DNA from: Patescibacteria group bacterium
GTDB lineage: Bacteria > Patescibacteriota > Minisyncoccia > UBA6257 > 2-01-FULL-56-20
DNA: 64,000 nt
Assembly: GCA_018971305.1 (NCBI GenBank)
Contig: JAGXBC010000001.1
Span: 245,687-309,686, forward strand
Direction of reading: 5' to 3'
A program made the translations under genes and the position numbers. Shown piece by piece: positions 10,017-62,919 of the stretch; within the stretch, counting starts at the first letter, position 1, and each line of letters opens with the position of its first letter. Below the pieces are notes generated by a model. It made no database searches. It worked only from the letters and a program-made list of their open reading frames with translations, and had not been told where the DNA came from.

Positions 10017-10705
10017 TATCGTCCGAAAGTTAAAATTTCGTTCGCGCTTGCCGCTTCCGACGAGTTGCGCGTGCCGTTTATGGAGAGCCCGACATCGAAC
10101 TCCGAACCTGGAGGGGTAGATGGATTTAGGTTAACCGTAAGCTTGGAAGGGTCCTCTAAATTTGTCGGAGACTGGTCGTTCACGGTCCAGGAGTAGTTCA
10201 ACGACGATGGCGTTGTCGTGTTGAAAAAATACGGGATAGCAGAAACCTGCAAAGAATTACCGGAGAAACTTCCATTGGGATAGGGCGAATAAATCACCGC
10301 CTCCGGAGAGACAAGTGGTATATCTATATTATCAACGAGGAGGTTGGTCGCGTAATTTGGGATTTGGATTCTTATGCTCGCAGTATCCGTGATTCCGTTT
10401 GGAACGAATCCTATGCTTTGCATGCCAGCTCCTCCGGCGAGGAGATCATCATTCAGATACCAGTAAACTGTTTGTTTAGAAATATCGGCAGGCTTTCCTC
10501 CGACCAAGAGCTCAAAAGACACGTTTATTAGAGAATTTGTCGTGGGCATAATTTTCCCCCGATAGTCCGCCGGCACATAGCTATTTGCCCGCCAAGTAAC
10601 AAGAAATTGGGGGGTTGATTGCTGGGCCCTCGCTTCGCGGATTAAAAGCAGGGCCGCGAATATAGCAGAGAACAATATTAAGACCGTATTAAGATTTTTT
10701 TTCAT
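10016..10705 (-). CDS. secreted hypothetical protein (signal peptide), T4SS-like operon member
   Basis: MKKNLNTVLILFSAIFAALLLIREARAQQ signal peptide. 229 aa with no recognisable domain. Its stop overlaps the start of the downstream gene at 10016. Confidence 0.5.
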   Translation of the reverse strand: MKKNLNTVLILFSAIFAALLLIREARAQQSTPQFLVTWRANSYVPADYRGKIMPTTNSLINVSFELLVGGKPADISKQTVYWYLNDDLLAGGAGMQSIGFVPNGITDTASIRIQIPNYATNLLVDNIDIPLVSPEAVIYSPYPNGSFSGNSLQVSAIPYFFNTTTPSSLNYSWTVNDQSPTNLEDPSKLTVNLNPSTPPGSEFDVGLSINGTRNSSEAASANEILTFGR

Positions 10706-10715
10706 CCTTTATTAA

Positions 10716-11756: not shown

Positions 11757-11777
11757 AATTGCATCTTAAAACTAAAT

Positions 11778-13532
11778 CTATGATTCCTGATCGTGTTCCT
11801 CTACCAATAACTGTTCCGGGTTGGTAGTAATAACGCGGTCTTCAAAATATGAAGCAACGACCTGTATGGCTACGTGCCGCTTATTCCCCGCGAAGAATAA
11901 TCCGGTGCCGACTTCGGCCCCCAAAAGAAAATTCTTTTCTGAATCAGTCAGGTCAAAAGCCTTAGCGACAATATCAATGGTTGCCGGCGCCTGTTTCAAA
12001 AGGAGTTGAAGCGAGGAATTCGTGATTATCGGCCGCCCGTTAGGCGAGCGCAGAAAGTCCTCAACGTCTTGCGTGATAGTCGTTAATCCTAAATAGTATT
12101 TACGGCAACGTTTGGCGATACCCAAAAGGAAAGAAGAACTATCCTCATTCTTCATCATCCACCAGGCTTCGTCGATGATGAGCAGGCGTTTTTTGAGCTG
12201 GGCGCGTACTAAATTCCAGATGAATCCCAAGATAATAAACATTGCTATCGGTCGCAATTCTTCCTCCAGGTCGCGGATAGAAAATATTATAAGTCGATTA
12301 TCAACATCTATATTGGTGGGCTGGTTTATAAACCCCGAGAAACTTCCCTTAGTGAACTTATAGAGGCGTTCGGCTATCGCTTTCCCTCCTTCAAGGTTTC
12401 GCAAGATAGTTTCCAGGTCTTCCAAAAGCGGAGATGTGGCGCCGGAAAAATCCTGTCCGGCAACTATTTCGCGCGAAGCATAGGTTTCTGTTATCGCTCT
12501 GTCGAGAAGGGCGTCTTCTTCCGGCTTAAGTTTTCCGAGCATGAGTTTAAGTAGGCTGGAGATGTTAACGATGTGGGAGCGCAGGACGTCGGAGGGAGAT
12601 TCGTCTTTGGGAATGGGCGGTATGTCAAAAGGGTTGATGTGTTCGTGCGAAGAAAGGGAAATATTAAAAATTGTTCCGCCCAGGGTATTGGAAAGTTTTT
12701 GATATTCGTTTTCGGGATCAATAACTATTACGTTTTCCGTATCCGTCATTAACGATCTTATTATTTCCAGTTTGGTGGCATATGATTTTCCCGAACCGGC
12801 TTTGGCAAAAACCACTTGATTGGCGTTCTCCAAAGAGAACCTGTCGAAAATCACCAGGCTGTTATTATGCAGGTTTATGCCGTACATAATTCCTTCATTG
12901 GAAGACAGGTCTTCGGAAACAAAGGGGAAGAAAGATGATATCGGTCCGGAATTCATCGGTGTATAGATCTGGATCTTGTCGTCGCCCGTAGGCATTATGG
13001 AGAATAATCCCTCCAGTTGCTGGAAGATGGCTGGTTTTAAATAGATAAGTTTTGCCTCCATAATTGATGTTAGTTTGGATTCTATCCGCGCCAGTTCTTC
13101 CTGTGAGTCGGCATAAACAGTTATATATACTCCTGTGTCAAAAAGTTTTTCCTGCGATTGTTGTAATGTGTCGCGCAGGGTTTCCACGTCGCGGAGGGCC
13201 GTCTCGAGCATTGGATCACGCACTAATCCCTTATCGGCGTTATCGTTTATTTGTGATTCAAGTTGGGCCGATTTTCTCCGAAGGTTTTTGAGTGCCGAGC
13301 CCGTGTCTATTGGATTTACAAAGATAGAGATATCAAATAGATTCGGAAGATCTATTATCGGTTCAAACCAGCCGGTGGAAAGATAGCGCGGATAAGAGAA
13401 AACGAAGAACGTCTTGGCTATTTTATCCCCGATCTTTAAGTAATTTTGGGCGACCTCCAATCCGGCCGGAGCGATAATCTTGGTTACGTTCTTAAAATCA
13501 CTATTTTGGCCTTCGTTTTTATTATTGGGCAT
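11778..13532 (-). CDS. virB4: VirB4/TrbE/CagE-family T4SS ATPase (central + ATPase domains)
   Basis: Walker A FAKAGSGKSYATK, Walker B LLIIDEAWWMM. The conserved VirB4 middle region is present (FFVFSYPRYLSTGWFEPII). 584 aa. Confidence 0.85.
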   Translation of the reverse strand: MPNNKNEGQNSDFKNVTKIIAPAGLEVAQNYLKIGDKIAKTFFVFSYPRYLSTGWFEPIIDLPNLFDISIFVNPIDTGSALKNLRRKSAQLESQINDNADKGLVRDPMLETALRDVETLRDTLQQSQEKLFDTGVYITVYADSQEELARIESKLTSIMEAKLIYLKPAIFQQLEGLFSIMPTGDDKIQIYTPMNSGPISSFFPFVSEDLSSNEGIMYGINLHNNSLVIFDRFSLENANQVVFAKAGSGKSYATKLEIIRSLMTDTENVIVIDPENEYQKLSNTLGGTIFNISLSSHEHINPFDIPPIPKDESPSDVLRSHIVNISSLLKLMLGKLKPEEDALLDRAITETYASREIVAGQDFSGATSPLLEDLETILRNLEGGKAIAERLYKFTKGSFSGFINQPTNIDVDNRLIIFSIRDLEEELRPIAMFIILGFIWNLVRAQLKKRLLIIDEAWWMMKNEDSSSFLLGIAKRCRKYYLGLTTITQDVEDFLRSPNGRPIITNSSLQLLLKQAPATIDIVAKAFDLTDSEKNFLLGAEVGTGLFFAGNKRHVAIQVVASYFEDRVITTNPEQLLVEEHDQES

Positions 13533-13568
13533 ATATTTATTTGTGCCGATAGTTAGGTGGTTAAAAAA

Positions 13569-14243
13569 TTATAATCCAGATTTTTCGGAAGCTATATTCA
13601 CACCTTCTTTCTCAACGGTTTCCGGATTGTAAAAATTATAGAAGAGCTCTATTAATTGTTCGTTGTTCAGGACGACGGCTTCCAGCCCTATCGATAAAAG
13701 CCCCTCCAATACTTGGTTCACGCGCTGTTTCAGCTGGGCAAGGTTTTCATTGAAACGCATCATCGTTTCCGCCTTAGCCTTTTCTTCGGCAGCATCATTC
13801 TTTTTGCCGAAGAATGGCAGGATTTTACTTATGGATTCCTGGTTTGGAAGCATCAGGGGGGAAAACGGCACAACCACCAGAAAGGCCTTTTCCATGATGG
13901 CATTTTTTTGTACGAAACCGCGCACAAATTCTATGTACTCCTCCGTTTGGTTCTGCAGAAGCGGCGACTTCTCTTTGGCTTCGTATTTAGCAAGGCCGCT
14001 CAAGTATTTTTCTATATTTACCTTCCGGGAATGGATGATGACTTGCATCGGAAAATCCAGGCCATTCAAAAAATTTTGGTAGGCCTGCGTTACGATGTTC
14101 TGCTCCATTTCAGATTTCAGGGCAAAATTAATTCCGCTTACCATAATAACCTGGCGCAGACTGCCGTTTTTCATTACCACCGTGTCTTGCACAATGTCTT
14201 TTATAGACACCAGGTCTTGAGTGTTCGCAAAATTTTTAGGCAT
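13569..14243 (-). CDS. VirB4 N-terminal domain (CagE/TrbE/VirB N-domain) as a separate ORF, i.e. a split VirB4
   Basis: KNGSLRQVIMVSGINFALKSEMEQNIVTQAYQNFLNGLDFPMQVIIHSRKVNIEKYL resembles the VirB4 N-domain (DGSL..v..v.G.d....s.ee...). It lies 36 nt upstream of the ATPase ORF on the same strand. Confidence 0.55.
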   Translation of the reverse strand: MPKNFANTQDLVSIKDIVQDTVVMKNGSLRQVIMVSGINFALKSEMEQNIVTQAYQNFLNGLDFPMQVIIHSRKVNIEKYLSGLAKYEAKEKSPLLQNQTEEYIEFVRGFVQKNAIMEKAFLVVVPFSPLMLPNQESISKILPFFGKKNDAAEEKAKAETMMRFNENLAQLKQRVNQVLEGLLSIGLEAVVLNNEQLIELFYNFYNPETVEKEGVNIASEKSGL

Positions 14244-14284
14244 CTTTTTATTTTATTATACCTTTTAATTACCCAATTCTAAAT

Positions 14285-14782
14285 TTATCTGTAATCAATG
14301 CGCCGTGCCGCCTCGCGATCTCCTGTGACGTGCTGGAATATTTGGTACTGATCATCAACCTTCTGCATGAATTGTTGGTTGGATACTTTTGTGCCGCTTT
14401 GCAGGTTTTTCCAGGCGCTGCGTAGCGCCGCTCCAGAAACAATATTCTCTAGTGAGAAATTACCAGACACTCCAAGCCCATCACTACCCTTGACCGTTTC
14501 CGGATTTTCCGGCTGCCAGACGTACACCTGCGGTTTCCAATAAAAACCGAAGGCGCTTAGAACCACGCTCGGTAGGGCTCTCCCCTCCACTCTTATAAAT
14601 GCCAGAGCCAGAGATCCGCCTACAAGGAAAATAGAAAGCATGGCAAAAAGCCATGGCTGTACTGTGAAATATAGGAGGAAACTAAGAATTCCTGCAGAGC
14701 CTACGTAGACGAACTGTTTAATAGTGAAGGGACCGACGAGCTTGTCTTCCGTTTGAATAAATTGAGGGACCTGAAATTGCAT
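14285..14782 (-). CDS. VirB3/PrgI-like small membrane protein
   Basis: 165 aa with two adjacent TM helices (FVYVGSAGILSFLLYFTVQPWLFAMLSIFLVGGSLALAFI). It sits immediately upstream of VirB4, as PrgI/VirB3 does in Gram-positive-type T4SS. Confidence 0.5.
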   Translation of the reverse strand: MQFQVPQFIQTEDKLVGPFTIKQFVYVGSAGILSFLLYFTVQPWLFAMLSIFLVGGSLALAFIRVEGRALPSVVLSAFGFYWKPQVYVWQPENPETVKGSDGLGVSGNFSLENIVSGAALRSAWKNLQSGTKVSNQQFMQKVDDQYQIFQHVTGDREAARRIDYR

Positions 14783-14899
14783 TGTTTTTAGGTTTTACCC
14801 ACCTGCCTCGTCTGCCGACTGGCAGGGCTATTTTAGGTGTTTGGCTTTTAGTTGATCTTAGCGGGGGCTTCCTAAAAGCCAAAAGTCAAAACCTAAAAG

Positions 14900-16156
14900 C
14901 TAGGTGTTTATTGGAGGCTTCGGCAGATTAACGTCTGATTGGTTTAGAGCTTGCGATGGCGACTGATCGCCGGGAATAGCTTTATTTTTTTCCAATATTT
15001 TTATTTTCTCAAACTCGCCCATTGTATCTTTAATTTGCGGTAAAGATTGTGGCGGTTCTGCTCTTTTGATTATCGGTGATCCTGCAAAGAGCGGTCTGAC
15101 TTGTTCGTTATTCCCCTCTATTTTTTTTGTTCCGGTGTCGTTCGCGATGGGCTGTGGCATGTCACCCACAATCGTCTTTAGTCCGGTGTAGTGTACTACC
15201 CTGGGCTGTTCTTGTTTCTGGGCAATAATTTCTGGTTGTGTGTTTGGGGCAGATGGCTGTTGGCTCTTTATATCTTTTGTAATTGGAGAGAAAACAAATT
15301 TATCCATTTTTGCCACCGGCGGACGTGGTGGTGGGGCTGGCTTCATTACTCCTTTATTTGTCGTGAATGAAACGGAGCCGCCGATTTCTATTTTTGCCGG
15401 TCCAAGCGGAGCTTGTCTGTCCTTAGTTTCTGAAATTTTCTGTTCGGGGATATTTATTCTGAACTCCGAGGCCGATTTTGTAGGAGAAGCCGGAGCTTCT
15501 TCGCGATGAAGCATTGCCGGGGGCGGTTCGTCGGGGGATTCTTCGGTTGATATTTTTTCTGTCCCATAATCAATACGTTCCGCTTTCTGGTTCTGTATTC
15601 CTTGCCGCCTATCACTCACCGCTTGTTGCTGGGCGGGAGATTCAGTGAGACGTGACGGTGGTATTTTCTTTCCCAACTCCATTCTCTCAAATTCCCCGAT
15701 GGGCTCTTTCTGTTTTTCCACCTGTAGTGTGGCGGAGAGCGTGGGTTTTGCAGAGACGAATGTTTCGCCGATATCTATCCCTCCCGGTCGGCGGATTTCT
15801 TCCATTACCCTCGGAGCGATCATATCAAATTTTGAAATCGGTTCATGCACAGACATAATATCGGCTTTCAGGGGATCAAAAATTCTCTTGTTTATCGCGC
15901 CGGCTATTGTGTCTGCGGCCTGCGGTACGATTCCCAACTCTTTAAGCTCTCCCGCCATGTCTTCCGGATGGATGAATCCCAAAATCACGTGGCCGAAAAT
16001 CCTTACCACATAATTTATTTGTTCTTCTGGCAGATGCTCATTGCCGCAAGTTTTCCAAATGAAATCGGAGTTCGCTTCCGAGACCATCGCTTCGCGCAAA
16101 ACATCCGGGATATTATCCCATCGTTCCAGCGCTTGATTTTGTGTGACTGTTACCAT
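14900..16156 (-). CDS. hypothetical protein with a globular N-domain and a long Pro-rich tail (T4SS-like operon member)
   Basis: 418 aa, no TM. The C-terminal two thirds are rich in P/Q/E/K (KPAPPPRPPVAKMD, PPINT). Confidence 0.45.
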   Translation of the reverse strand: MVTVTQNQALERWDNIPDVLREAMVSEANSDFIWKTCGNEHLPEEQINYVVRIFGHVILGFIHPEDMAGELKELGIVPQAADTIAGAINKRIFDPLKADIMSVHEPISKFDMIAPRVMEEIRRPGGIDIGETFVSAKPTLSATLQVEKQKEPIGEFERMELGKKIPPSRLTESPAQQQAVSDRRQGIQNQKAERIDYGTEKISTEESPDEPPPAMLHREEAPASPTKSASEFRINIPEQKISETKDRQAPLGPAKIEIGGSVSFTTNKGVMKPAPPPRPPVAKMDKFVFSPITKDIKSQQPSAPNTQPEIIAQKQEQPRVVHYTGLKTIVGDMPQPIANDTGTKKIEGNNEQVRPLFAGSPIIKRAEPPQSLPQIKDTMGEFEKIKILEKNKAIPGDQSPSQALNQSDVNLPKPPINT

Positions 16157-16164
16157 GTTTTATT

Positions 16165-18738
16165 TTATGGTCTATTATTTCCGCCGCCTTGGTTTCCGCC
16201 TCCTCCACCACCGCTACCTCCGCTACCAGGTCCGCCACCGGAGTATTCCCATGTCCCGAAGTAATTTTGTAATGTTCGTTCGTGGCCTTTGAGAGCACCT
16301 TCCAGTTGCCGTAATTTTATTGCGGCTGCTGCCTCGCCCTCTTTGTCCCCGGATGCTTTAAACGCATCTACGACCCCCTGCTGTGCATTAATGAGTTGTA
16401 TTAATAAATTAGGAATCTTTTCCATTCCGGTAGTAGCGAGCGTTTGCGAATTCATATTCCTTACTATGGTGGGTATGATGCGTTGGTTATTTTCGGTGAT
16501 TGCCGAAAGAAGTTCTTGGGTGGTGAGTGGGTGTTCTGCGTAGGCCTTTTTGCCGAAGATTGCGTTGGCGTTCATCCTTGCGGCGTCAGTGGCGGTAAGT
16601 TTTGTGGCGAATTCCTTCATGGATTCTCTAAGCAGTTGTGCTGCCGATATTTCTGTTTGTCCTGTTTGAAACATTTTTTTGGCCCATGTTTGTCCTGCTT
16701 GGAATATTTCATTTCCATCCTCATCTTTTACGGCTTCAGCTGGCTTAATTTTCGGGCTGTTCTGTTCTAGATACTCCCATCTAGCCTTATCTCCAGCAGA
16801 CTTGGCATTGGCTTCTTCTGCTGCCTCTCCCGCTTCCGTCGCGCGTTTAATAGTATCAATACTATTTTTGGCCTTATCTCCGGCGGCTTTTGCGTTATTC
16901 TCGGCTTCAGTTTGAGGGCGACCACGTTTAAGAGATGCCTTCCTCTCTGCTTCATACGCTTTGTCATATGCATTAGTAAGAACTTTATCGTGTGCAGTAG
17001 CGAACGCCTGATTAGTCATCATGGAGTACCCCGCGTTCATCACCGACACATTCCCCGGGGCCTTTGCTATATTGTACGCTTCCTCATATTTTTTATCAGC
17101 CTCGGATATTAACGGTTTCAAGGCCTTTTCCGATATTCTTGTATTCGTCGTGCTACCGGTTAGCTTATCGTAATCACCGAGCATCTTCTCCTGCCTAAAT
17201 CTTTTGATGGTGTCCATGTTGGACATAAACTCTCCGGCAGTGCTTTTGCCTCCATCAATCTTAGTATCATTGGATATCTTTTTGCTTTCTTTCAGCATTT
17301 CTATCGCCGCAAACTTCATTTCGGTTGTAAGGTTTCCAGAGTTAAGGAGTTCTGTTAACTCCGAGGAGCTTTTGCCTTTTAATCTGTCCTTCGCGCCTTC
17401 TACCATTCCCTCGTTGCTGGTTACCTTACCTAGACCGAGAGCTGTTTCCCGCTCTAGCCTGCCGGCAATAAATCCGGCTGCACCTCCCACAACCGGGATT
17501 TTCCTTATTTGCTTACTTACGGCGCCTTCTCGTAGATGCTTTTCAAGAACCTCGCCGCCCGCTTTCTGATATGCGAGCCGCCCACCCTTCTTGGCCTGCT
17601 TGCCGACGTATCCGCCGATTCCGGTTGCCGCGCTTTTAACCGCCGCCATTCCCGCGCTCGCGCCCATAATTCCTAAAGAGTTCGCCGCGATAAGCCCACC
17701 GACGGTCAGACCAAGGAGCACGAAGTCACCTAAAATATTCGGGATAAGTACTTTGAAAGTGCCGCTGAAGAATTGAGATACGGCACTTTGCGCGTTACCA
17801 AGGTTAACATTCGGCGTCGGTTCTGTTTGGGTTGAGATTCTATGGATTCCTGGTGCCATGATGACGACAAGATATAGAAAGAAAACAACTATCGGGGGGA
17901 AAAGCGCCCACCTGATGAAATTACTCCACCATTTTGTGAAATTTCCCCGTAAAGCAGGGAAAACCCAGCAAAGCCAGGCGAACGGCAGAAGAATGAAAAG
18001 TATGGACAAGTACACGTATCTTATTAAGAGCATTATGGCAAGAGTTCCTAAAACAATTACAATGCCGACAAGGGTTATTAGGGCAAAAACCATTGCCACT
18101 AAGATCACGATTACGCTTCCAGCGCTACTTCCTAGGGCGTCGGCGGTTCCCAGGTTCGAACCCCCGCTACTAGACAGCATTACTTGTGGCTGGAATAGGA
18201 TGGCGATTGCATTATTAAACCCCTGACCAGAAAATTGGTCTAAGAAAAAGTTAGTCAAACCATTTGCCGCGCTTACCAGCATGCCGCCGATGACCAATCC
18301 GAAGTTGACGAGGATAGCCATGAAGACAAGCTTCCAGAGGATTTGTTTAAGGCCGTATGTTTGGCTGCGGAGAATCGTAGCGAGAGCTATAACTATGATT
18401 CCCAGAACGAAACCAAGGTTGGCGATAGAGAGGGATGTGGCAAAGCCGGTTTGCACGAGGGCCGTATTTACTATACCCCTATTGATATCAAGGAGTAATT
18501 TTATCGCCCAACTCTCCACGGCTATAGCCAAGCTGGCAACCGTGGCCATAACGTACACGATCCCGTAAACAAGATTATTTACTACTGAGCTACCTATATC
18601 TTCTAAACATCCCGTTGCTGTAGCGCACCATGCTTTTGCCTGATGCGGAGATAATGCAAAAACCGCAAGCGCGATGAATAGTGTCGTTATAACCAATTTC
18701 GTTTTTCTATTTTTTGCTATTCGTGTAAATGTAGGCAT
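16165..18738 (-). CDS. VirB6/TrbL-like polytopic membrane protein with a long hydrophilic C-terminal domain and a Gly-rich tail
   Basis: Signal peptide plus about 7-8 TM helices in the first ~370 aa. An ~450-aa K/E/A-rich coiled-coil-like region follows. Terminal GGGPGSGGSGGGGGGNQGGGNNRP. Size and topology resemble Gram-positive VirB6 analogues (PrgH/TcpH). Confidence 0.55.
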   Translation of the reverse strand: MPTFTRIAKNRKTKLVITTLFIALAVFALSPHQAKAWCATATGCLEDIGSSVVNNLVYGIVYVMATVASLAIAVESWAIKLLLDINRGIVNTALVQTGFATSLSIANLGFVLGIIVIALATILRSQTYGLKQILWKLVFMAILVNFGLVIGGMLVSAANGLTNFFLDQFSGQGFNNAIAILFQPQVMLSSSGGSNLGTADALGSSAGSVIVILVAMVFALITLVGIVIVLGTLAIMLLIRYVYLSILFILLPFAWLCWVFPALRGNFTKWWSNFIRWALFPPIVVFFLYLVVIMAPGIHRISTQTEPTPNVNLGNAQSAVSQFFSGTFKVLIPNILGDFVLLGLTVGGLIAANSLGIMGASAGMAAVKSAATGIGGYVGKQAKKGGRLAYQKAGGEVLEKHLREGAVSKQIRKIPVVGGAAGFIAGRLERETALGLGKVTSNEGMVEGAKDRLKGKSSSELTELLNSGNLTTEMKFAAIEMLKESKKISNDTKIDGGKSTAGEFMSNMDTIKRFRQEKMLGDYDKLTGSTTNTRISEKALKPLISEADKKYEEAYNIAKAPGNVSVMNAGYSMMTNQAFATAHDKVLTNAYDKAYEAERKASLKRGRPQTEAENNAKAAGDKAKNSIDTIKRATEAGEAAEEANAKSAGDKARWEYLEQNSPKIKPAEAVKDEDGNEIFQAGQTWAKKMFQTGQTEISAAQLLRESMKEFATKLTATDAARMNANAIFGKKAYAEHPLTTQELLSAITENNQRIIPTIVRNMNSQTLATTGMEKIPNLLIQLINAQQGVVDAFKASGDKEGEAAAAIKLRQLEGALKGHERTLQNYFGTWEYSGGGPGSGGSGGGGGGNQGGGNNRP

Positions 18739-18746
18739 CGCAGTTT

Positions 18747-20618
18747 TTATAGATTAAGCAGTGAGCCGCCGGTGAATTTTCCGATAAGGCCATTTATGAA
18801 CGAAGCAAGGAATCCTGCTACGGCGTTCGCGTTCGCGGAAAGATGAATGTCGCCTCCAAGAGCGCTGGATAGTTTGTTGCCGATAGTGGCTCCAGGTGTG
18901 GTTATGAGTTGTTTAGATAGGCTTGGCGTTTTACATACTTCAGCGCTACAAGTTCCATTGGTACAGGTTGTTAGTTGGGTCTGAGTGTAGCCTGCTTGAA
19001 TTTCGTTGTTGACATTCGCTGTTATGGTGTTTACAGCATCTGTTTGGCTTTGGCCCGTAATATCGTTCACATCATAAGATGCGCTATATGGCAAGCAATC
19101 TCCGCCACTGCTTATGCCACCCCCAGTGTCTGTCCCGGGGAAACCTTGGCCGGCGACGGCTCTGTTTACTTGGGAGTTAAGCGCCGCGGCCGCATCTGAC
19201 AATTGTTTGTCGTGGGCGAGAGACAGGAATCCGAAAAAGTTATTATTTGGCCGCAACATTGCTCCGAAACCATTCCATCCCCCCCTGCTGAAATCGCCAT
19301 AGAAAGCATTTGCATCTGTTAAGACGAGCCTTAAGTCGCTTTTCGGAGTCGCATTTAGTGCCGTAAGGTTTAACATTTTCCCCACTAAACCGCTGAAGGA
19401 CGGATCTCCGCGGGCTACGCTCATGGTAAGTGATTGAGCCGCTGCCGTATCAAACGCTTTAGCCTGGTAATTCAGCCAATTGGTTATGAATTTCGGAGCG
19501 CCGGAACCCTGCACATACTTGACCATTGCCTGTTGTATTGTGTTTACAAGTTGCGTTCTTAGGACCAGTATGAGGGCTTGTTCTATAATCTTCCAGATAT
19601 TCGTTACAATATCGTTTATCAATGAGCTAATTTGGGTGCCCAAGCGTATGGGGCCAGTATAGTCAGCGTACGCTGTTTTGACGCCGATTAATTGATTTAT
19701 AAATGCCAAGACCCCCGTCTTTGTTTCTTGATGCACGGAGAGAGATTTTTGCAATCCGGCTTTTTCAAACTCGGTTTGTAGGTCGGAAGCTACGGTAGGC
19801 AGGACATTTTTTTCTGCTTGGGCGATAAGATAAGTTTTCACAGGATCGTCAGTTGTTTCCACATTTACTCCCATGTCGGCGAAGTTTTTTTCATAAACTA
19901 TCGCCGCGAGCAGGCTTTTATGGAAGCCAACAAGCGTAGACGGAATTGTTATCGATTGTGTGCTGCTTGCGGCCTTAGCTAACGTTTCGGCAACCGGCTG
20001 AAGTTCGCTCGGGTTTGCCGTGGTCGGATCTTTTTCTAAAAAGGCCGTAATAACTTGATTGGTCGTATATTGATTAAATATATTATCCAGCTCGGTGATG
20101 TATCTCTCTTTGGCGGCCACCGAGTTGTCGTCGGAAATATTGACCGTCAGTGCCTTGGCCTCGGCAATCCAGTCCGGAGCCTGGAGGGTCTGTATTTCGG
20201 GGGCGCCCGTTAGCTGATTTAGTAAGCTCGTCTGGTCCGGCATATTCAGCGAAGTTTGGCCGTCGGCGGTTTGTTGCGGTCCGGAGGGATTTGCGAGAAC
20301 AATTTGCCGCGCAAAACTGTCGGCAAAATCATGCGTAAGGTTCCCGGTTGTCTCCGCCGGCGGTAAGTCGCTGGCTTTTATCGCAACCGATCCGGCCGAA
20401 TTAACTGTTTGATTATCTGTTATTTGGGGAGCAACTGCATACTGATCCGTAAAAGCATTGCCAGGCACCAAATTGGCATAATTCTGTGACTGGTTGGAGA
20501 TGTTAGCTTGCTGGGTTAGGGTCTGGTTATTTTGCCAGTCGAGAAAAATCAAACCCGCGGAACTCATAATTGCCGCCAAAACCAAAAACCCCCCTATTAA
20601 CTTTTTTAAATCTATCAT
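18747..20618 (-). CDS. large membrane-anchored extracytoplasmic protein, first gene of the T4SS-like operon
   Basis: N-terminal TM LIGGFLVLAAIMSSAGLIFL, then ~590 aa rich in Q/T/N/S. No catalytic motif recognised. Confidence 0.5.
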   Translation of the reverse strand: MIDLKKLIGGFLVLAAIMSSAGLIFLDWQNNQTLTQQANISNQSQNYANLVPGNAFTDQYAVAPQITDNQTVNSAGSVAIKASDLPPAETTGNLTHDFADSFARQIVLANPSGPQQTADGQTSLNMPDQTSLLNQLTGAPEIQTLQAPDWIAEAKALTVNISDDNSVAAKERYITELDNIFNQYTTNQVITAFLEKDPTTANPSELQPVAETLAKAASSTQSITIPSTLVGFHKSLLAAIVYEKNFADMGVNVETTDDPVKTYLIAQAEKNVLPTVASDLQTEFEKAGLQKSLSVHQETKTGVLAFINQLIGVKTAYADYTGPIRLGTQISSLINDIVTNIWKIIEQALILVLRTQLVNTIQQAMVKYVQGSGAPKFITNWLNYQAKAFDTAAAQSLTMSVARGDPSFSGLVGKMLNLTALNATPKSDLRLVLTDANAFYGDFSRGGWNGFGAMLRPNNNFFGFLSLAHDKQLSDAAAALNSQVNRAVAGQGFPGTDTGGGISSGGDCLPYSASYDVNDITGQSQTDAVNTITANVNNEIQAGYTQTQLTTCTNGTCSAEVCKTPSLSKQLITTPGATIGNKLSSALGGDIHLSANANAVAGFLASFINGLIGKFTGGSLLNL

Positions 20619-49037: not shown

Positions 49038-49041
49038 CGCT

Positions 49042-49830: not shown

Positions 49831-49840
49831 ATTTGTTTTG

Positions 49841-50229: not shown

Positions 50230-50312
50230 TCTAACCCAGATTGTTAATATTGCAAAATGGCGTCAGATTTATACACTATCTATATATTCGGGCTTGCCCG
50301 CCATAGCGCGCA

Positions 50313-50642: not shown

Positions 50643-50654
50643 CAAAAATAAAAA

Positions 50655-56060: not shown

Positions 56061-57344
56061 ATGAAGTTTTCCAAAAAACAAATAATCATTATAGCTGGAG
56101 GAGCAGTTTTATCTATTGTTTTAATCTATTTAGTTGCCGCAAATATCCGTCCCAAGCCCACCGTGGGGCCAAGTTTGACTTTGAATCTTTGGGGATTGGA
56201 CGATAAATCCGCAATGTCCAAAATCATCGGCGGCTATCAAAAACTTAGGCCGACAGTTAAAGTAAATTACCAGCAATTCTCTCCTGCCGATTACGAAAAC
56301 CAGCTTCTTGAAGCGATGGCTTCCGGCCAGAGCCCGGATATCTTCTATATCGGCAACCATGGCGTACCCAAGAGTTTAGACAGAATTGTCGCCGTGAGTC
56401 CGACACAGTTTAATTTATCGGGCATACGGTCATTATTCCCGGCGGCCGTTGAGCAGGATTTTGTGCAGAACGGAACGATTTACGCCTTGCCCTTGTATAT
56501 GGATACAATGGCTCTCATATATAACAAGGATTATTTCAATCAGGCGGCGATTGTTTATCCTCCGAAGACCTGGAACGATTTCCAAAACGATGTGAAGATT
56601 CTCAGGGTTATCAGTCCGAACGGGCAAATTGCCCGCGCTGGAGCCGCACTCGGCGGTTCGGAAAAAACTGTTGATGCCGGCGTGGACTTAATCAATCTCC
56701 TGATGCTGCAGAACGGAACGCAGATGATACCGAGCAACTTCCAGGGTTACACCCCACAGGGTTTTGGCGACTCGGGCTTGGCGGCATTCAATTTTTATCT
56801 GCAGTTTGTTAACAGCACTTCTCCTTATTACACTTGGAACGAGGGGCAGGGCAATTCCTTAGACAGCTTTGCCGGCGGCAAGACGGCGATGATTCTTAAC
56901 TATCAATCGGCCATTTCCGTTATCCAGAGTAAGGGTCCTTATATAAATCTGGCCGTTGCGCCGATGCCTCAGCCGACCGGTGCAAAACTTGATGTCAATT
57001 ATCCTCGCTATTATGGCCTTGTTGTTTCCAAGCTCAGTAAAGCAACGAGTTGGGCCTGGGATTTTGTAATTTACGCGTCTACAAACGAGAGCGCGCAACA
57101 AGCTTATTTAGGAGCAACCGGCAGGCCGCCGGCGCTACTTTCGCTTATCAATGCCGACTTGAATGATTTGAATTTGGGGGTTTTTGCCAAGCAGGCGCTT
57201 ACCGCCCGCTCCTGGTATATACCGGATGATACTAAAGTTGAAGACAGCTTCAACTCGGCGATAGAGAATGTTCTTAGCGGCAAGATAAATTCCAAGGTTG
57301 CTCTTGATCAAGTGGGAGGAGCAATAGGGCAATTATTGAAATAA
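56061..57344 (+). CDS. ABC transporter extracellular solute-binding protein (family 1, sugar-type)
   Basis: N-terminal TM/signal anchor, then an SBP_bac_1-like fold (LTLNLWG, DIFYIGNHG, YALPLYMDTMALIYNKD). Confidence 0.7.
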   Translation: MKFSKKQIIIIAGGAVLSIVLIYLVAANIRPKPTVGPSLTLNLWGLDDKSAMSKIIGGYQKLRPTVKVNYQQFSPADYENQLLEAMASGQSPDIFYIGNHGVPKSLDRIVAVSPTQFNLSGIRSLFPAAVEQDFVQNGTIYALPLYMDTMALIYNKDYFNQAAIVYPPKTWNDFQNDVKILRVISPNGQIARAGAALGGSEKTVDAGVDLINLLMLQNGTQMIPSNFQGYTPQGFGDSGLAAFNFYLQFVNSTSPYYTWNEGQGNSLDSFAGGKTAMILNYQSAISVIQSKGPYINLAVAPMPQPTGAKLDVNYPRYYGLVVSKLSKATSWAWDFVIYASTNESAQQAYLGATGRPPALLSLINADLNDLNLGVFAKQALTARSWYIPDDTKVEDSFNSAIENVLSGKINSKVALDQVGGAIGQLLK

Positions 57345-57380: not shown

Positions 57381-59159
57381 ATGAAAAAATTTTATATTCT
57401 ATGTTCTATGGTTGGCGTTCTGCTGTTGTCGGCCGGTTTTGTATTTTCTGTTCAGTTGGCCAATGCCCAAAGCTGCGGCAATGGCAATTTCTGCAGTATC
57501 ACTGTTCAGTTGGGAGCTCCCAGCCAAAGCGTTTCGTCTGGTGGGGAATTTCTTAGCTTCACTGCGACTGTCTCGTGGAATGATGCCAGCTATATTGATT
57601 CTAATAATAACTATTGCGGTTCGGGAAATTATTCGTATTGTAGCCAGGGAAACTCCGTGAGCGTAGTCCTCGCCCAATCGACAGGTTCCGGTTATACGGT
57701 TGTAAACAGTAATTCCGTTACGCTCGTTGCCACTGGGAGCACTAATCAAGCCACGACATTTTTCAGCGCGAATGTTCCATTATCTTCAACTGCCACGACG
57801 GCTTCATTCGTAGTAATAGTATTGCCCTCCGGTGCAACCATTCCGGCAGTAGGCAGTAGTATAAGCGTATCATCTCCTTCAAGTAATGTTGTGTCCGTAT
57901 CTATCCCGGCAGCCAATACCTATACGTATTGTATAGATACGAAAAGTTGTATCCTCGGCGATGGCGGCGCCGGTTGTCCAACTTCCACTACCTGTCCTAA
58001 TGGGTGCAATGGAACTTACGATACGCAAGCAGATTGCGTATCAAGTAATGGTGGCGGCACAGTCTCCTCAAATTTATGCCCTGCTACCTATTACGAGCAA
58101 TGCAATGCCAACTCAAGCGGCGGGAATTCGTGTATGACGTCAAGCGATTGCAACGACTCAAGCAAATGCTTCTCCTGCGATACTACTTCGAATTTCTCCG
58201 ATTCAAGCTGTAATACTTCTTGCGCGGTTTCGGGAACCGGCAGCACGAGCGGGGCATTTTACTCTTGCCCCGCTAACGGCACATGCAATTTTTATACAAG
58301 CTTGGCCGTTTGTAACGCCATCTGTAGTGGAACATGCAGTGGGCCGTTTAGTTCTGGATGCAACGGCAGTTTGTCGTCGTATACCTTTTGCATAGATACA
58401 CAGAGTTGCGTTGTCGGCGATGGCGGTGCCGGTTGTCCAACTTCCACTACCTGTCCAAATGGGTGTAATGGAACTTATGATACGCAAGCAGATTGCGTAT
58501 CAAGCAATGGTGGCAGTAGTGGTTATGGATACCAAGATGCTAGTGGGAAATGCTTCAGTACGCTATCGGATTGTACGAATGGCGGGTCTGGCGGATGTGT
58601 GCCGTGCGCATCGTCTTGTGTTGACGGTTCTGATTGCACGATTGGCAGCTCTGGCGGCACTACCGCAACCGGCTGCGCATCTTTTACAGCTCAATCGGGA
58701 TGCGAGGCCGCCGGTTGTTCGTGGAGTGGTAGTTCCTGTACCAGTCCCAGCACAACACCGCCATCGCTCAGCGGCATTCAGATGCCGGCGCTCTGGCCGA
58801 CCGGATATTGGGCACCGACCGGGCTTTTATCCTGCAATAATACAAAAAACTCGGATAATACCATTAAGCTTAACTGCACCAGTTTGGCCGACCTAATGCA
58901 AACCTTGTTGAATATCCTTTCTTTCGCCATGACTATCGCCATATTCGTTTTAGCTCCTATATTTTTCGCTTGGGGGGGCATAATGATAATGATTGCCGGA
59001 GCATCGCCCGATAAATTCGCGACCGGAAAGAAAATTTTAACGGGAACTATAATCGGCGTTGTTATTGTGCTCGCTTCTTACCTTATCGTCAGTACCTTCG
59101 TTAGTGCACTCGGCATACTTTGTGTCGGTGGTTTCAGTAGCGGGTCGTGCCCGTTATAG
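57381..59159 (+). CDS. large Cys-rich secreted protein with an internal duplicated module and a C-terminal VirB2/TrbC-like pilin domain
   Basis: Signal peptide. More than 60 Cys. The module YTYCIDTKSCILGDGGAGCPTSTTCPNGCNGTYDTQADCVSSNGG occurs twice. The C-terminal two hydrophobic helices flank ASPDKFATGKK, like the small pilins downstream. Confidence 0.6.
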   Translation: MKKFYILCSMVGVLLLSAGFVFSVQLANAQSCGNGNFCSITVQLGAPSQSVSSGGEFLSFTATVSWNDASYIDSNNNYCGSGNYSYCSQGNSVSVVLAQSTGSGYTVVNSNSVTLVATGSTNQATTFFSANVPLSSTATTASFVVIVLPSGATIPAVGSSISVSSPSSNVVSVSIPAANTYTYCIDTKSCILGDGGAGCPTSTTCPNGCNGTYDTQADCVSSNGGGTVSSNLCPATYYEQCNANSSGGNSCMTSSDCNDSSKCFSCDTTSNFSDSSCNTSCAVSGTGSTSGAFYSCPANGTCNFYTSLAVCNAICSGTCSGPFSSGCNGSLSSYTFCIDTQSCVVGDGGAGCPTSTTCPNGCNGTYDTQADCVSSNGGSSGYGYQDASGKCFSTLSDCTNGGSGGCVPCASSCVDGSDCTIGSSGGTTATGCASFTAQSGCEAAGCSWSGSSCTSPSTTPPSLSGIQMPALWPTGYWAPTGLLSCNNTKNSDNTIKLNCTSLADLMQTLLNILSFAMTIAIFVLAPIFFAWGGIMIMIAGASPDKFATGKKILTGTIIGVVIVLASYLIVSTFVSALGILCVGGFSSGSCPL

Positions 59160-59162
59160 CTT

Positions 59163-60386
59163 ATGAAAAAATTATTCTTTATCTTCTCGCTTGCCATTTC
59201 TGTTTTTTACCTGTCATTTTTATTAACAAGCAGAGTTTTCGCTACAGTCCCCATCAACACCAACCTCCCCTTCTCAACAGGTCCGGACATTCCGTCTACC
59301 GTTAACGCTTTCTATAAATATGCCCTATATCTCGGAGGCATCCTTGCCTTCGGAGCTGTGGTATTCGGGGGAGTAAAGTATATCTTTGCCGCAGGCAATC
59401 CTTCCGGACAAAGCGAGGGTAAAGATTGGATAAAAAGCGCTTTATTGGGCTTAGTTCTCCTCGGTGGAGCTTATCTCATCCTGAACGTCATCAACCCCAA
59501 CCTTGTTAACCTCAATTTACCAACATTGTCCCCGGCTAATGTGTCGTCGCTCGCGGTAAATTTGTCGAGTTCGAATTTGTGGTATGTTTGCGACAGCAAT
59601 GGGCTTACAACTGGTCAGTCGTATTCCGATCTGTCAAGTTGTGATAGCGCCAATTTGTTAAATCCATCGGGCTATACATGCCAGCAGGGCAAATGCCAAA
59701 ATGGCGGCAATGCATATTATCTTTGTGATAGCAATAACCAATCCACTTCGTATACATATTCAGACCTTAGTAGCTGTCAGGCCGACCTTTACAAATATCC
59801 GGGCGGTTCCTGTAAGTCTGGTTCTTGTGTGAGTACGGGGGGCGGTACTTGTCAGTCAACTACGGACTCGAGTAATATGTGTAGCGTGGGTAACGTACAG
59901 ACTGCATGCTCATCTTGGGATCCGAATTCTGCTTCGCAAATTTGCCTGGTAGAGAGCGCGGGGGGTAATCCCAATATTATGAGTGGCAGTGATATATGTT
60001 ATAACAACGGCAACCCTGTATCGTTCTCCGGTGGACTGTGGCAAATTAATCTTACTAATACATCCGGCGTTCCGTCAGCTTGTAGTTTCAGCCCAACCAG
60101 CAATTATAGTGGGCAATTGAGGCAGGGTTGTGGGTCGGCATTCTCTTCCACAAACAGCACGCAGGGAAGTTGTATAAAGTGTAATACAAACAATAAGGGG
60201 CAGATATATTGTGCGCAATGGACTTGTTCTTTTCAGGGTTCTACGACTGATTACAACACCTGTGTAAACGGCGCCGAAGCCAATAATAATCAATTGGCTT
60301 GTAACCTCTACAATAATTCACACGGCGGAAGTTTTTGCCCATGGAAAATTACTGCACAGGGTTGCGGAATTTCCGTACCATGCTAA
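59163..60386 (+). CDS. decorated pilin: N-terminal VirB2/TrbC-like pilin domain plus a C-terminal Cys-rich domain (paralog of 9084..10016)
   Basis: Residues 27-129 are about 98% identical to the N-domain of the 9084..10016 protein. The C-terminal Cys-rich domain differs. Confidence 0.6.
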   Translation: MKKLFFIFSLAISVFYLSFLLTSRVFATVPINTNLPFSTGPDIPSTVNAFYKYALYLGGILAFGAVVFGGVKYIFAAGNPSGQSEGKDWIKSALLGLVLLGGAYLILNVINPNLVNLNLPTLSPANVSSLAVNLSSSNLWYVCDSNGLTTGQSYSDLSSCDSANLLNPSGYTCQQGKCQNGGNAYYLCDSNNQSTSYTYSDLSSCQADLYKYPGGSCKSGSCVSTGGGTCQSTTDSSNMCSVGNVQTACSSWDPNSASQICLVESAGGNPNIMSGSDICYNNGNPVSFSGGLWQINLTNTSGVPSACSFSPTSNYSGQLRQGCGSAFSSTNSTQGSCIKCNTNNKGQIYCAQWTCSFQGSTTDYNTCVNGAEANNNQLACNLYNNSHGGSFCPWKITAQGCGISVPC

Positions 60387-60404
60387 TAAAATAAAAATTT
60401 ATTT

Positions 60405-60962
60405 ATGAAAAAATTAATTATTATCGCGGTCATTATTATAATAATTGTAGCGGTATTATTCTTGGTTTTTATTGGGAGAAGGCAGACCCAGCAGCAAGTT
60501 GGCGGCTCTGGTAGTGTTCGGCCACTTCCAGTTCCCGTCTCCTTGCCACAACCTACCGATCAGACAATTTCTCTGCAGACGAGCCAGGGTTCTATTGTCT
60601 TGAAAAATTTTTATAATACGGCGGTGGTAGACAATGGCCCCGGCGCTGTTAATGATATAAATATACTTATGAGATCTGATATCGGAAATAAATACCACTA
60701 TGAGATGGGGTATGAAAGGCAGGTCAGTAGATTCGACATCGTTTTAAACACCTATTCTTTGGAAGATGCAATTAAATATAGGAAGGAGGCCGAGGCTGAT
60801 TTCCTAAATATACTTGGGATCAACGAACCGGATGCGTGCAAACTTAACGTTGACCTCATAGTTAATCCGACATATGTGTCTATCGGCAATTATCCTCCTG
60901 GATTCCGATCGGAAACTAACTATGGTCTAAGTTTTTGTCAAAGCGGTTTGCCGTTGCAATAG
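60405..60962 (+). CDS. membrane-anchored hypothetical protein
   Basis: N-terminal TM IIIAVIIIIIVAVLFLVFI, then a ~150-aa extracytoplasmic domain. It starts 19 nt after the previous gene. Confidence 0.45.
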   Translation: MKKLIIIAVIIIIIVAVLFLVFIGRRQTQQQVGGSGSVRPLPVPVSLPQPTDQTISLQTSQGSIVLKNFYNTAVVDNGPGAVNDINILMRSDIGNKYHYEMGYERQVSRFDIVLNTYSLEDAIKYRKEAEADFLNILGINEPDACKLNVDLIVNPTYVSIGNYPPGFRSETNYGLSFCQSGLPLQ

Positions 60963-61022
60963 ATTATCCATTGATTTAATTAGTGAATTGAGTTATGGTC
61001 CACCTGTTGTACAATAAAAACA

Positions 61023-61349
61023 ATGCTAAACTCACTATTCAAGCAAATTTTACTCAGAAGCGGTTTGGTTAAGGAAGCGTTTGCCCAAACGCTGATAAAC
61101 CCCCTTGGGACAGGTGCGACTTTTACGAGCGTAGTGGACAGCGTAATTAATTTTTTGATAACAATCGGCATACCGATTGCCGCCGTGATGGTTCTAGTCG
61201 GAGGCTTTCAGATGATGGTCTCCGCCGGTAATCCGGAAAAAATCTCCAGCGGGAAAAAGACCATCGTTTATGCGGCCATTGGCATAGCTGTCATTTTGGC
61301 GGGGAAAAGCATTATTGTTCTCATCAAAAATGTTCTGGGAGCGTCGTAG
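61023..61349 (+). CDS. VirB2/TrbC-like T4SS pilin (small, 108 aa)
   Basis: Leader, then two hydrophobic helices separated by SAGNPEKISSGKKT. Ends IVLIKNVLGAS. Confidence 0.65.
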   Translation: MLNSLFKQILLRSGLVKEAFAQTLINPLGTGATFTSVVDSVINFLITIGIPIAAVMVLVGGFQMMVSAGNPEKISSGKKTIVYAAIGIAVILAGKSIIVLIKNVLGAS

Positions 61350-61406
61350 TCGTGGATTCGCATGGGAATTCACATATATATTACGGAATTGCTATAATAT
61401 AAAGAA

Positions 61407-61808
61407 ATGAGAAGCAAAAATTTTTTAATCGGAGAGGCCGGTAGGGTTTTAGGGGTTGCCGCCCCGTCTGCTTTTTTTATAGCTTTACAACTTTTTGCAT
61501 CCGTGGCGAATGCCGCAGTTAGTGGGACCGGTATTGACATCAGTACTCCCGACCAAGTAGTCGGCATCATCTGCAGGATCGCCGCCGACATGTTCTGGAT
61601 CCTAATAGCGCTTTCTACTGTTATGGTGTTATTCGGGGCTTTCACGTATGTTACAGCCGGAGAGAGCGCGGAAAAGGTGAATAGCGCGCATAAAATAATT
61701 ACCTATGCCGCAGTCGGCATAGTTGTGGCCCTGCTTGCCAGGGGTTTCCCTTATATCGTGGCGAGCGTTTTAGGCGCTTCATCCGGAACCGGCATAAAAG
61801 GCTGTTAA
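61407..61808 (+). CDS. VirB2/TrbC-like T4SS pilin paralog (133 aa), C-terminal Cys
   Basis: MFWILIALSTVMVLFGAFTYVTAGESAEKVNSAHKIITYAAVGIVVALLARGFPYIVASVLGAS...GC. A TGCTATAAT extended -10 lies upstream. Confidence 0.65.
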   Translation: MRSKNFLIGEAGRVLGVAAPSAFFIALQLFASVANAAVSGTGIDISTPDQVVGIICRIAADMFWILIALSTVMVLFGAFTYVTAGESAEKVNSAHKIITYAAVGIVVALLARGFPYIVASVLGASSGTGIKGC

Positions 61809-61891
61809 ACACAACCCCCTTGTTTTTAGGGTCTGATTATGCTATAATGGATAGAATATAAAGAAAGGCCGAAAAAACATATAAAATATCA

Positions 61892-62356
61892 ATGAAATCA
61901 ATAAAAAATTACTTAATAAAATCCGCGCTCATAAGGCGCGACGTAGTTATGGGTTTGAGTTATGCTTTGGTTGGGTTATTCAGCCTTGGCGTAGCTAATG
62001 CTCAAACAGGTTTGCCTGGTATAGGGTTTGTATCGTCCAGGGGTGTAATTTATACACCAACTGTAAGTAGCATATTTTTGGGATCCAATGGATTCATATG
62101 TAGAGCAGCCTCTATTCTGTTCTGGATTCTTATAGCGCTCACTGTTGTATTTGTATTGGTTGCAGCCTATAAATATCTGACATCCGGCGGCGATGAAGCT
62201 AAAGTTTCCAGCGCTACAAAAACAATCACCTATGCGGCAATAGCTATCGTCGTCGCGCTGCTTGCCAGAGGATTTCCGTTTATTGTAAGTAGCGTTATTG
62301 GATATTTTGGAGGAACTTATTTAGGCGCATCTGGTCCGCCCCTATTGGGTTGTTAG
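61892..62356 (+). CDS. VirB2/TrbC-like T4SS pilin paralog (154 aa), C-terminal Cys
   Basis: ILFWILIALTVVFVLVAAYKYLTSGGDEAKVSSATKTITYAAIAIVVALLARGFPFIVSSVIG...GC. A TGCTATAAT lies upstream. Confidence 0.6.
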   Translation: MKSIKNYLIKSALIRRDVVMGLSYALVGLFSLGVANAQTGLPGIGFVSSRGVIYTPTVSSIFLGSNGFICRAASILFWILIALTVVFVLVAAYKYLTSGGDEAKVSSATKTITYAAIAIVVALLARGFPFIVSSVIGYFGGTYLGASGPPLLGC

Positions 62357-62509
62357 TAAAAATCATTCAGCTGCAACCATCTTCTCGTTAATGGTTAGGA
62401 TAATATGATATAATTTATTTATTATGCGGGTGTGGCTTTTATAAGAAGTCCCTGCCACCAACTAAGATAATTAGATATATACCCAAAGGTCGAAAAGCGA
62501 TTAAAATCT

Positions 62510-62869
62510 ATGAAAAAGTTAATTAAATTTGCGGTTAGTGGTTTACCTGCGCTTTTGCCGGTTATGGCATTTGCGCAAACCTATACTTCTCTCACGGTGA
62601 CATCGCCGGTTACAAGCATAGGCGGTTTTATCGGATTGATTTGTACCGCGATAAACTGGTTATTTACGTTCTTGATTGTTTTAGCCGTTCTTTTCGTCCT
62701 TCTCGCGGCGTTCAAGTATTTGACCGCCTCCGGGGATCCGGAAAAGGTTAAAGGTGCAAGCCATCAGTTGATCTACGCGGCAGTTGCCGTGGCGGTCGCC
62801 GTTCTTGCAAAAGGCATTCCGCTGATCGTCGGCAGTTTCTTGGGCGCAAGTGGCCTGAAGTCCTGTTAG
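62510..62869 (+). CDS. VirB2/TrbC-like T4SS pilin paralog (119 aa), C-terminal Cys
   Basis: INWLFTFLIVLAVLFVLLAAFKYLTASGDPEKVKGASHQLIYAAVAVAVAVLAKGIPLIVGSFLGASGLKSC. Confidence 0.65.
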   Translation: MKKLIKFAVSGLPALLPVMAFAQTYTSLTVTSPVTSIGGFIGLICTAINWLFTFLIVLAVLFVLLAAFKYLTASGDPEKVKGASHQLIYAAVAVAVAVLAKGIPLIVGSFLGASGLKSC

Positions 62870-62894
62870 TCGAAAAGTTTTGTTATGCAGCCAA

Positions 62895-62919
62895 AAACCC
62901 GCCAATTGGCGGGTTTTTG
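62895..62919 (+). terminator. rho-independent terminator closing the pilin array
   Basis: aaaCCCGCCaattGGCGGGttttt. Confidence 0.65.

Follow-up and report, generated by a model that had tools for sequence, protein, structure and literature searches.

Arrays of divergent VirB2-like pilin genes have been described in ultrasmall Patescibacteria, where they accompany a type IV secretion system (T4SS). Quinonero-Coronel et al. (2025) screened 3,035 Patescibacteria genomes using the Pfam profiles PF18895 and PF04956, reported 441 VirB2-like arrays in 383 assemblies, noted that T4SS genes often lie near dnaA and concluded that pilus biogenesis in the phylum seems independent of VirB1 (PMC12102498). 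Wang et al. (2023) report that the pilin series in the T4SS cluster of Southlakia epibionticum is essential (PMC10633639), and a 2025 review counts six sequence-divergent VirB2-like pilins in that organism (PMC12857230). Here, we analyse a pilin gene array at 57381-62869 of a 64-kb stretch of Patescibacteria DNA (the window; contig JAGXBC010000001.1 of assembly GCA_018971305.1, positions 245,687 to 309,686), and show how its genes are ordered, conserved and fused to other domains.

By the published definition (PMC12102498), which asks for two or more pilin genes, adjacent or with one non-pilin gene between them, in a genome encoding VirB4, the locus is an ordinary instance of these already described arrays, with six pilin genes, one non-pilin gene (X) between pilins B and C, and a VirB4-like gene at 11778-13532. 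What sets it apart is a pilin fused to a lysozyme-like domain and another with a very large cysteine-rich insert. Like the arrays of the 2025 survey (PMC12102498) and genes SEML1_0014-0019 of S. epibionticum (PMC10633639), it consists of tandem, divergent PF18895 pilins with a single non-pilin gene between them, has low paralog identity (21-51% within the array) and belongs with a Gram-positive-type, relaxase-less T4SS beside dnaA. The S. epibionticum array lies inside the T4SS cluster, whereas the main array of this window lies beside gyrA, at a distance of 37 kb from virB4. The accessible parts of the three sources (PMC12102498, PMC10633639 and PMC12857230) hold no description of four ordered pilin classes, a cargo-bearing BG class, X or the cysteine pair described below, and no mention of PF18896 was found in the literature searched.

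The gathering cut-off for PF18895 (T4SS_pilin) is 26.6 bits; those for PF04956 (TrbC/VirB2) and PF18896 (SLT_3) are 27.9 and 27 bits. A six-frame scan of the window with hidden Markov models (HMMs) yields exactly seven pilin open reading frames (ORFs), six of them (A to F) within 57381-62869 and the seventh, G, at 9084-10016 on the minus strand. All pass PF18895 (A 29.1, B 40.4, C 35.1, D 31.1, E 32.1, F 30.6 and G 41.2 bits); C also passes PF04956 with 30.4 bits, and the remaining pilins give sub-threshold matches to that family or none. Kyte-Doolittle hydropathy and alignment show in each of the seven a leader that ends in A-x-A, then two hydrophobic helices with a short polar loop between them. 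A first-pass annotation, made from the DNA alone, had placed seven VirB2/TrbC-like pilin domains in the array: the family holds, and the number holds for the window, with the seventh domain in G, outside the array. The same annotation gave the ORF coordinates correctly (A, B, X, C, D, E and F all lie on the plus strand) and overlooked the non-pilin gene X at 60405-60962; its T4SS-like machine 37 kb away is borne out by VirB4-, PrgI/VirB3- and VirB6-like genes at 11.8-18.7 kb. The sequence evidence supports assigning these proteins as VirB2-like pilins tied to a T4SS. Searches of PHROGs and NCBIfam gave nothing useful. In a library of 1.84 billion proteins, a profile of the small pilins has 33,055 matches at E<=0.001, counted as cluster representatives at 50% identity; the family is among the large protein families of uncultured bacteria.

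We then compared the array with 80 metagenome loci and two genomes, sorting the pilin ORFs with class-specific HMMs. They follow one blueprint: gyrA, a gene resembling the solute-binding family SBP_bac_1 (SBP-like), an A-type pilin, a BG-type pilin, X, a C-type pilin and then one to five DEF-type pilins, three of which are present here. The order A, BG, X, C, DEF is the same nearly everywhere among the 80 metagenome loci; BG is followed by X and then C in 25 loci, and X by C in 34 of the 34 X-bearing loci. SBP-like homologs (E 1e-78 to 1e-140) lie directly upstream of the A-type pilin in 26 loci, with gyrA ahead in 23. Both of the closest genomes, OY970382.1 and a Minisyncoccia metagenome-assembled genome (MAG), carry gyrA, the SBP-like gene, a 149-aa pilin, a lysozyme-tailed pilin, a 175-aa non-pilin and five pilins. 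Measured against the comparison loci L001 and L003, positional identity is 39% over 114 aa for A (against the 149-aa pilin), 53% for B, 56-58% for X, 47-50% for C (against the fourth-position pilin) and 57-62% for F, which is the ortholog of the last pilin in related arrays; the positional match of D and E is ambiguous, at 36-46%. The SBP-like gene is 47% identical to its syntenic counterpart in L001. Between the two close genomes the array genes are one-to-one orthologous, with ratios of nonsynonymous to synonymous divergence (dN/dS) of 0.19-0.35. Because the class order is fixed, the genes are one-to-one orthologs and selection is purifying, we read the array as probably a chromosomally fixed, ordered pilin operon of the Patescibacteria T4SS, not a variation cassette.

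The BG-type pilins are the most conserved class of this operon, with a mean pairwise identity across 17 complete loci of 54%, compared with 46% for A, 44% for C, 37% for DEF and 30% for X. The pilin B (407 aa, 59163..60386, plus strand) consists of a leader (aa 1-27), a pilin module (aa 35-129, 59265-59549) with the PF18895 match at aa 45-110, two Y-x-C...Y-S-D-L-S-S-C repeats (aa ~140-225, 59580-59837) that are not found in its relatives, and a lysozyme-like domain (aa 226-407, 59838-60383). The second BG-type pilin of the window, G (310 aa), stands at the downstream end of the T4SS cluster, where its start overlaps the stop of the gene ahead of it, at 10016. In a Patescibacteria group bacterium MAG, the hypothetical proteins KGJ89_01575 and KGJ89_01320 match B and G, respectively, at 100% identity. 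The two pilins have unrelated leaders and C-terminal domains, and what they have in common is a segment of 331 nt with 91% DNA identity (59240..59570 on the plus strand in B, 9948-9618 on the minus strand in G). The encoded hairpin core is identical over 95 aa; 29 of the 331 nt differ, 21 codons carry synonymous changes only, synonymous divergence (dS) is 0.36 and dN/dS is 0.06. The identity of the core thus reflects, on this sequence evidence, strong purifying selection on an old duplicate, and the 29 differences, almost all synonymous, rule out recent gene conversion between B and G.

The first-pass annotation read A and B as decorated adhesin-pilins and proposed a search for adhesin or toxin folds; at the C terminus of B we find instead a predicted enzyme domain that is lysozyme-like, of the PF18896/SLT_3 type. 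This domain aligns over its whole length with proteins that pass PF18896, and a profile-profile comparison (hhalign) links the B subfamily to six PF18896-positive domains at a probability of 98.7% (E=3e-16); an HMM built from those six domains matches the close relatives of B, not B itself. The Glu-Ser motif of lytic transglycosylases, which holds the catalytic Glu, is kept in the alignment. E264, S265, D277, G291, Q294, N296 and seven cysteines are invariant among 12 sequences, and among 20 sequences E264 is still invariant and S265 at least 90% conserved. Sequence profiles run against the PDB gave no match for the domain. Foldseek, which the first-pass annotation had proposed for the cysteine-rich domains, gave no significant match in the PDB for a model of the B domain. 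An AlphaFold2 model of full-length B from 12 sequences reached a pLDDT of 53, and its Foldseek matches are meaningless. The evidence for a lysozyme fold is moderate.

Cargo at the C terminus is general in the BG class. Among 88 database homologs of the BG hairpin, 87 have a C-terminal tail of at least 77 aa, and the tails fall into nine multi-member families and singletons: 20 are SLT_3-like, one is a canonical SLT domain, one cluster matches CHAP in 6 of 8 members and another matches VanY in 4 of 6, in each case with sub-threshold scores. At the second operon position, the cargo in 25 loci is SLT_3-like in 4, VanY-like in 6, CHAP-like in 2 and drawn from three unnamed cysteine-rich families in 12. 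Two metagenome loci with the order A, C, DEF lack BG and X (L030 2427-3353 and L045 4576-5502); their A-type pilins bear a C-terminal tail with LAS/VanY-like motifs (TEAYPPT, H..D and HIH), and the hydrolase cargo seems to have shifted there to another pilin class. In the window, a LysM and Peptidase_M23 protein (26957-27952), 6 kb from the T4SS cluster, is a further wall hydrolase that may serve the system.

Among known systems, the T4SS peptidoglycan hydrolases VirB1, PrgK and TraG (of pIP501) are close parallels: B likewise has a lysozyme-like domain with a Glu-Ser motif and is encoded with T4SS components, and the CHAP-like and VanY-like domains in its slot elsewhere echo the SLT and CHAP pairing of Gram-positive T4SS enzymes. 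Those enzymes differ in having a plain transmembrane anchor, whereas the hydrolase of B is fused to a VirB2-like hairpin, and the B domain, which is of the cysteine-rich SLT_3 type, has no sequence match to solved structures.

The A-type pilin at the head of the array (A, 592 aa, 57381..59159, plus strand) has the opposite arrangement. The opposite fusion orders noted in the first-pass annotation are confirmed, with the pilin domain C-terminal in A (PF18895 match at aa 505-573) and N-terminal in B. A-type pilins elsewhere begin their mature N terminus with WP.G.WGP..SC...C..LCDL immediately after the leader and end in a tail reading GGF...C. In A, the leader ends at aa 29 (aa 1-29, cleavage ANA|Q) and the conserved A-type N terminus (WPTGYW..SC..NC) starts only at about aa 470, ahead of the hairpin (aa 505-587, also seen by hydropathy), and therefore some 440 aa have been inserted between leader and pilin (aa 30-469, 57468-58787, plus strand). 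The first part of the insert (aa 30-180) is rich in Ser, Thr and Val and has 4 Cys; the second (275 aa) has 36 Cys and is almost devoid of charged residues. The ectodomain had been credited with more than 60 Cys, and the actual numbers are 42, or 45 for the whole protein. The insert holds two copies of a 45-aa module with six Cys (57921..58055 and 58380..58514, plus strand) that are in frame and 89% identical in DNA. They differ at 15 nt, with synonymous-only differences in 9 codons and non-synonymous ones in 4, and from this synonymous excess we conclude that the module is under selection.

The insert itself is lineage-specific, as judged from sequence searches. Full-length A, searched against 5.8 billion proteins, found no homolog beyond an identical Logan entry (P0089), and BLAST of the insert against B, G and cysteine-rich database proteins returned composition-level similarity only. 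A comparable layout, with an N-terminal ectodomain followed by pilin hairpins, is seen in P0109 (34 Cys) and P0190 (1141 aa), and in L001 the extended pilin is the one at the C position (267 aa). Of the domains in the array, the insert alone is left as a candidate adhesin, and that function, or one as a spacer, is no more than a guess.

Downstream of X, the small pilins comprise C (108 aa, 61023..61349), D (133 aa, 61407..61808), E (154 aa, 61892..62356) and F (119 aa, 62510..62869), all on the plus strand. The first-pass description of four small pilins, each with a leader and two hydrophobic helices, three of them with a C-terminal Cys (D, E and F), is accurate according to hydropathy and the A-x-A sites; its conserved loop motif is approximate, since the form G[DN]PEK is confined to C and F. 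D, E and F are mutual closest paralogs (48-51% identity). Each combines a Cys ahead of helix 1 with a C-terminal Cys (Cys55 and Cys133 in D, Cys70 and Cys154 in E, Cys45 and Cys119 in F), and C has none. After leader removal all Cys counts are even: A 44, B 24, G 8, X 2, D 2, E 2, F 2 and C 0. The proteome of the window is Cys-poor, mostly at 0-0.5% with many proteins of 300-800 aa lacking Cys altogether, and this makes A (7.6% of residues) and B (24 Cys, 5.9%) strong outliers.

The Cys pair recurs beyond this locus. Of 69 single-domain family representatives, 56 have exactly two Cys, the first just ahead of helix 1 and the second within a few residues of the C terminus. The 233 small pilins of the metagenome loci include 105 with Cys in both the N-terminal flank and the C-terminal tail, 78 without Cys and 9 with a single Cys. 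For DEF-type pilins dereplicated at 60% identity, the table of N-terminal by C-terminal Cys has the rows 64, 2 and 3, 27 (Fisher p = 2.8e-18, in a test blind to kinship). C-type pilins have no Cys or an N-terminal cluster of at least two. In multi-domain proteins, 148 of 238 hairpins are without Cys, and P0090, P0091 and P0093 are nearly Cys-free polyproteins in which a single leader is followed by 6-8 concatenated hairpins. A disulfide from the Cys before helix 1 to the C-terminal Cys, within a subunit or between neighbours, is plausible in DEF-type pilins because both positions would face outward in a VirB2 hairpin.

The Agrobacterium VirB2 T-pilin and RP4 TrbC are reportedly cyclic, with their N and C termini covalently joined, as Eisenbrandt et al. 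are said to have found in 1999. The DEF-type pilins resemble them in the two-helix hairpin and in the Cys that co-occur at both ends; the difference is that a peptide bond closes the T-pilin and TrbC, whereas the DEF-type link would be a disulfide and could equally join neighbouring subunits. By analogy, the disulfide may replace pilin cyclisation.

Protein X (185 aa, 60405..60962, plus strand) is, on the evidence of its sequence relatives, a constant non-pilin member of the operon. It has one N-terminal transmembrane helix, a Pro-rich linker and a domain of ~130 aa with a Cys pair (C145, C178) and the conserved motifs KNFY, DACKL and PLSFC. Its homologs, found by tblastn and HMM in 34 of the 80 metagenome loci, each lie directly before a C-type pilin. 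A homolog search in the protein database returned X alone, and matches among PDB profiles to a ribosomal protein and to antibody light chains are spurious.

These features suggest a working model. The VirB2 and TraA hairpin exposes both its ends outward, and both fusion orders seen in A and B are topologically sensible because of this. With that topology, each pilin would be a Sec-exported, VirB2-like helical hairpin with outward ends, inserted in the membrane and passed to the VirB4/VirB3/VirB6 machine encoded 37-50 kb away, where the small C-type and DEF-type pilins would form the filament or channel. The BG-type pilins would be carriers by which an enzyme is retained at the machine or the filament; the cargo of B would be a disulfide-rich lysozyme-like domain in a VirB1-like role, with VanY-like or CHAP-like tails in the same slot of other genomes. 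The insert of A, predicted to be disulfide-rich, would be displayed outside the cell because it stands between the leader and the conserved pilin N terminus. More tentatively, and as a combination that we regard as possible but doubtful, DEF-type pilins may close on themselves or cross-link with neighbours by the terminal disulfide, a redox equivalent of T- and P-pilin cyclisation to which the polyproteins would add a third route, and BG-type cargo pilins may supply the VirB1 function, which Patescibacteria are reported to lack, perhaps by mounting wall hydrolases on a T4SS filament and so helping it through the wall of the host cell.

Several points weigh against the ordered-operon reading and the model built on it. 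Export, polymerisation and expression of the array proteins are predictions here, and no pilus is reported for Patescibacteria in the available parts of PMC10633639 and PMC12857230. The direct match of the B C terminus to PF18896 (15.1 bits, E=0.033) falls below the cut-off, and the CHAP and VanY matches of BG tails are all below the Pfam thresholds. No fold was identified for the insert of A; X has no credible match in Pfam, PHROGs or the PDB, and its fold was not identified either. For the disulfide, the support is the co-occurrence of Cys only, in statistics without tree correction, and the window shows no gene resembling Dsb or VKOR, a result that says nothing on the whole genome.

In one alternative there is no filament at all, and the hairpins stay in the membrane, either as components of the T4SS channel or as simple two-helix anchors for secreted enzymes and cysteine-rich domains. 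Gram-positive-type T4SSs are generally without pili (PMC10633639, PMC12102498). The tail of at least 77 aa in nearly all BG-type homologs is typical of anchored exoenzymes, and the high conservation of the BG hairpin, with its identical core in B and G, fits docking to a conserved partner better than an exposed fibre. Against this stand the significant pilin-family matches, including that of C to TrbC/VirB2, and the four co-conserved hairpin classes with up to five DEF-type copies, which exceed the needs of anchoring; the polyproteins of concatenated hairpins also suggest that many hairpins pack side by side. We consider the alternative without a filament rather improbable.

Less probable still, and in our view unlikely, is the picture drawn in the first-pass annotation, in which interchangeable pilin variants arose by tandem duplication and vary the cell surface, with A and B as host-attaching adhesin-pilins. 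Tandem divergent virB2 copies in Bartonella and Anaplasma are thought to diversify host interaction, as cited in PMC12102498, whose discussion also raises host-range adaptation; those, however, are lineage-specific variant sets, whereas here distinct, ordered classes are conserved between genomes. The low identity of paralogs in the array and the lineage-specific insert of A would suit such variation, as would the nonsynonymous divergence (dN) of the array genes, which is 2-7 times that of gyrA and folD; their dN/dS in the same comparison is 0.046 and 0.064. Still, dN/dS is below 0.35 for all genes of the array, and the fixed class order and one-to-one orthologs extend across many genomes. Expansion by tandem duplication fits the DEF class, which has 48-51% identity, upstream sequence common to D, E and F and 1 to 5 copies depending on the locus; it is the only class with visible duplication and loss, the other classes being distinct and fixed in order. 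Antigenic variation of the pilE/pilS type involves one expression site and silent partial copies that recombine with it. Here, every array gene is full length with its own start and leader, D, E and F each have a promoter-like site, and the window shows no long inter-gene repeats and no partial or silent pilin copies in the array. The ectodomain of B, moreover, is a predicted enzyme domain. The cassettes and surface variation of the first-pass annotation thus give way to four classes in fixed order under purifying selection. A mobile-element origin of the array is ruled out by its conserved chromosomal synteny with gyrA.

Promoter-like elements recur within the DEF segment. The extended -10 element TGCTATAAT stands before D (61390..61398, with the ATG 8 nt past the hexamer) and before E (61840..61848), and F is preceded by the extended -10 element TGATATAAT (62406..62414), all on the plus strand. 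D and E have similar upstream regions, and the duplicated units reported there by the first-pass annotation are real: TGCTATAAT is followed by ATAAAGAAA in both, with a 9-nt insertion in the copy of E. TGNTATAAT sites number 8 in the window, compared with 2.7 expected, and 3 of the 8 precede D, E and F. In C and D the start codon comes 7-8 nt past a -10-like hexamer (61010-61023 and 61393-61407), a spacing that suggests leaderless mRNAs for both. The leaders of E and F have the motif AAAGGnCGAAAA in common. The array closes with an intrinsic-terminator-like hairpin (62892..62919, plus strand), a perfect 28-nt palindrome with a 12-bp stem, 7 G-C pairs and a T-rich tail after it.

The window opens with a class A penicillin-binding protein, dnaN and dnaA (dnaA and dnaN at 3134-5711), directly followed by the T4SS cluster (10016..20618, minus strand). 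Its recognisable genes, also on the minus strand, are VirB4-like, split into two ORFs (11778-13532 and 13569-14243), PrgI/VirB3-like (14285-14782) and TrbL/VirB6-like (16165-18738). No coupling protein or relaxase was recognised among the T4SS-cluster ORFs scanned. Five of these ORFs have no Pfam match (7753-9045, 10016-10705, 10716-11756, 14900-16156 and 18747-20618), among which only 10716-11756 weakly matches a PHROG, itself unannotated. The array begins 36.8 kb beyond the cluster, directly after gyrA (53567-56005) and the SBP-like gene (56061..57344, plus strand), which encodes a membrane-anchored protein of 427 aa (PF01547, E=5.6e-30). This protein may be part of the pilin system; no ABC permease lies beside its gene. 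A XerC/D-like tyrosine recombinase (46938-47822) and a five-tRNA cluster (48870-50643) are found 7-10 kb upstream of the array, and L001 and L003 have a similar recombinase on the other side, 2-4 kb downstream.

In the only Patescibacterium that is genetically tractable, epibiotic life depends on the T4SS and its pilin series. In this locus and about 80 related ones, the "array" amounts to an ordered operon that joins four pilin classes to the conserved protein X. The value of the locus lies in general features that have been under-described: pilin classes in a fixed order, pilins with hydrolase cargo, paired terminal Cys and the X family. The terminal Cys pair, through Cys-to-Ser changes, offers a simple mutational handle on pilin maturation, and the pilin-hydrolase fusions, we infer, may provide an alternative to the conclusion of the 2025 survey that pilus biogenesis is independent of VirB1.

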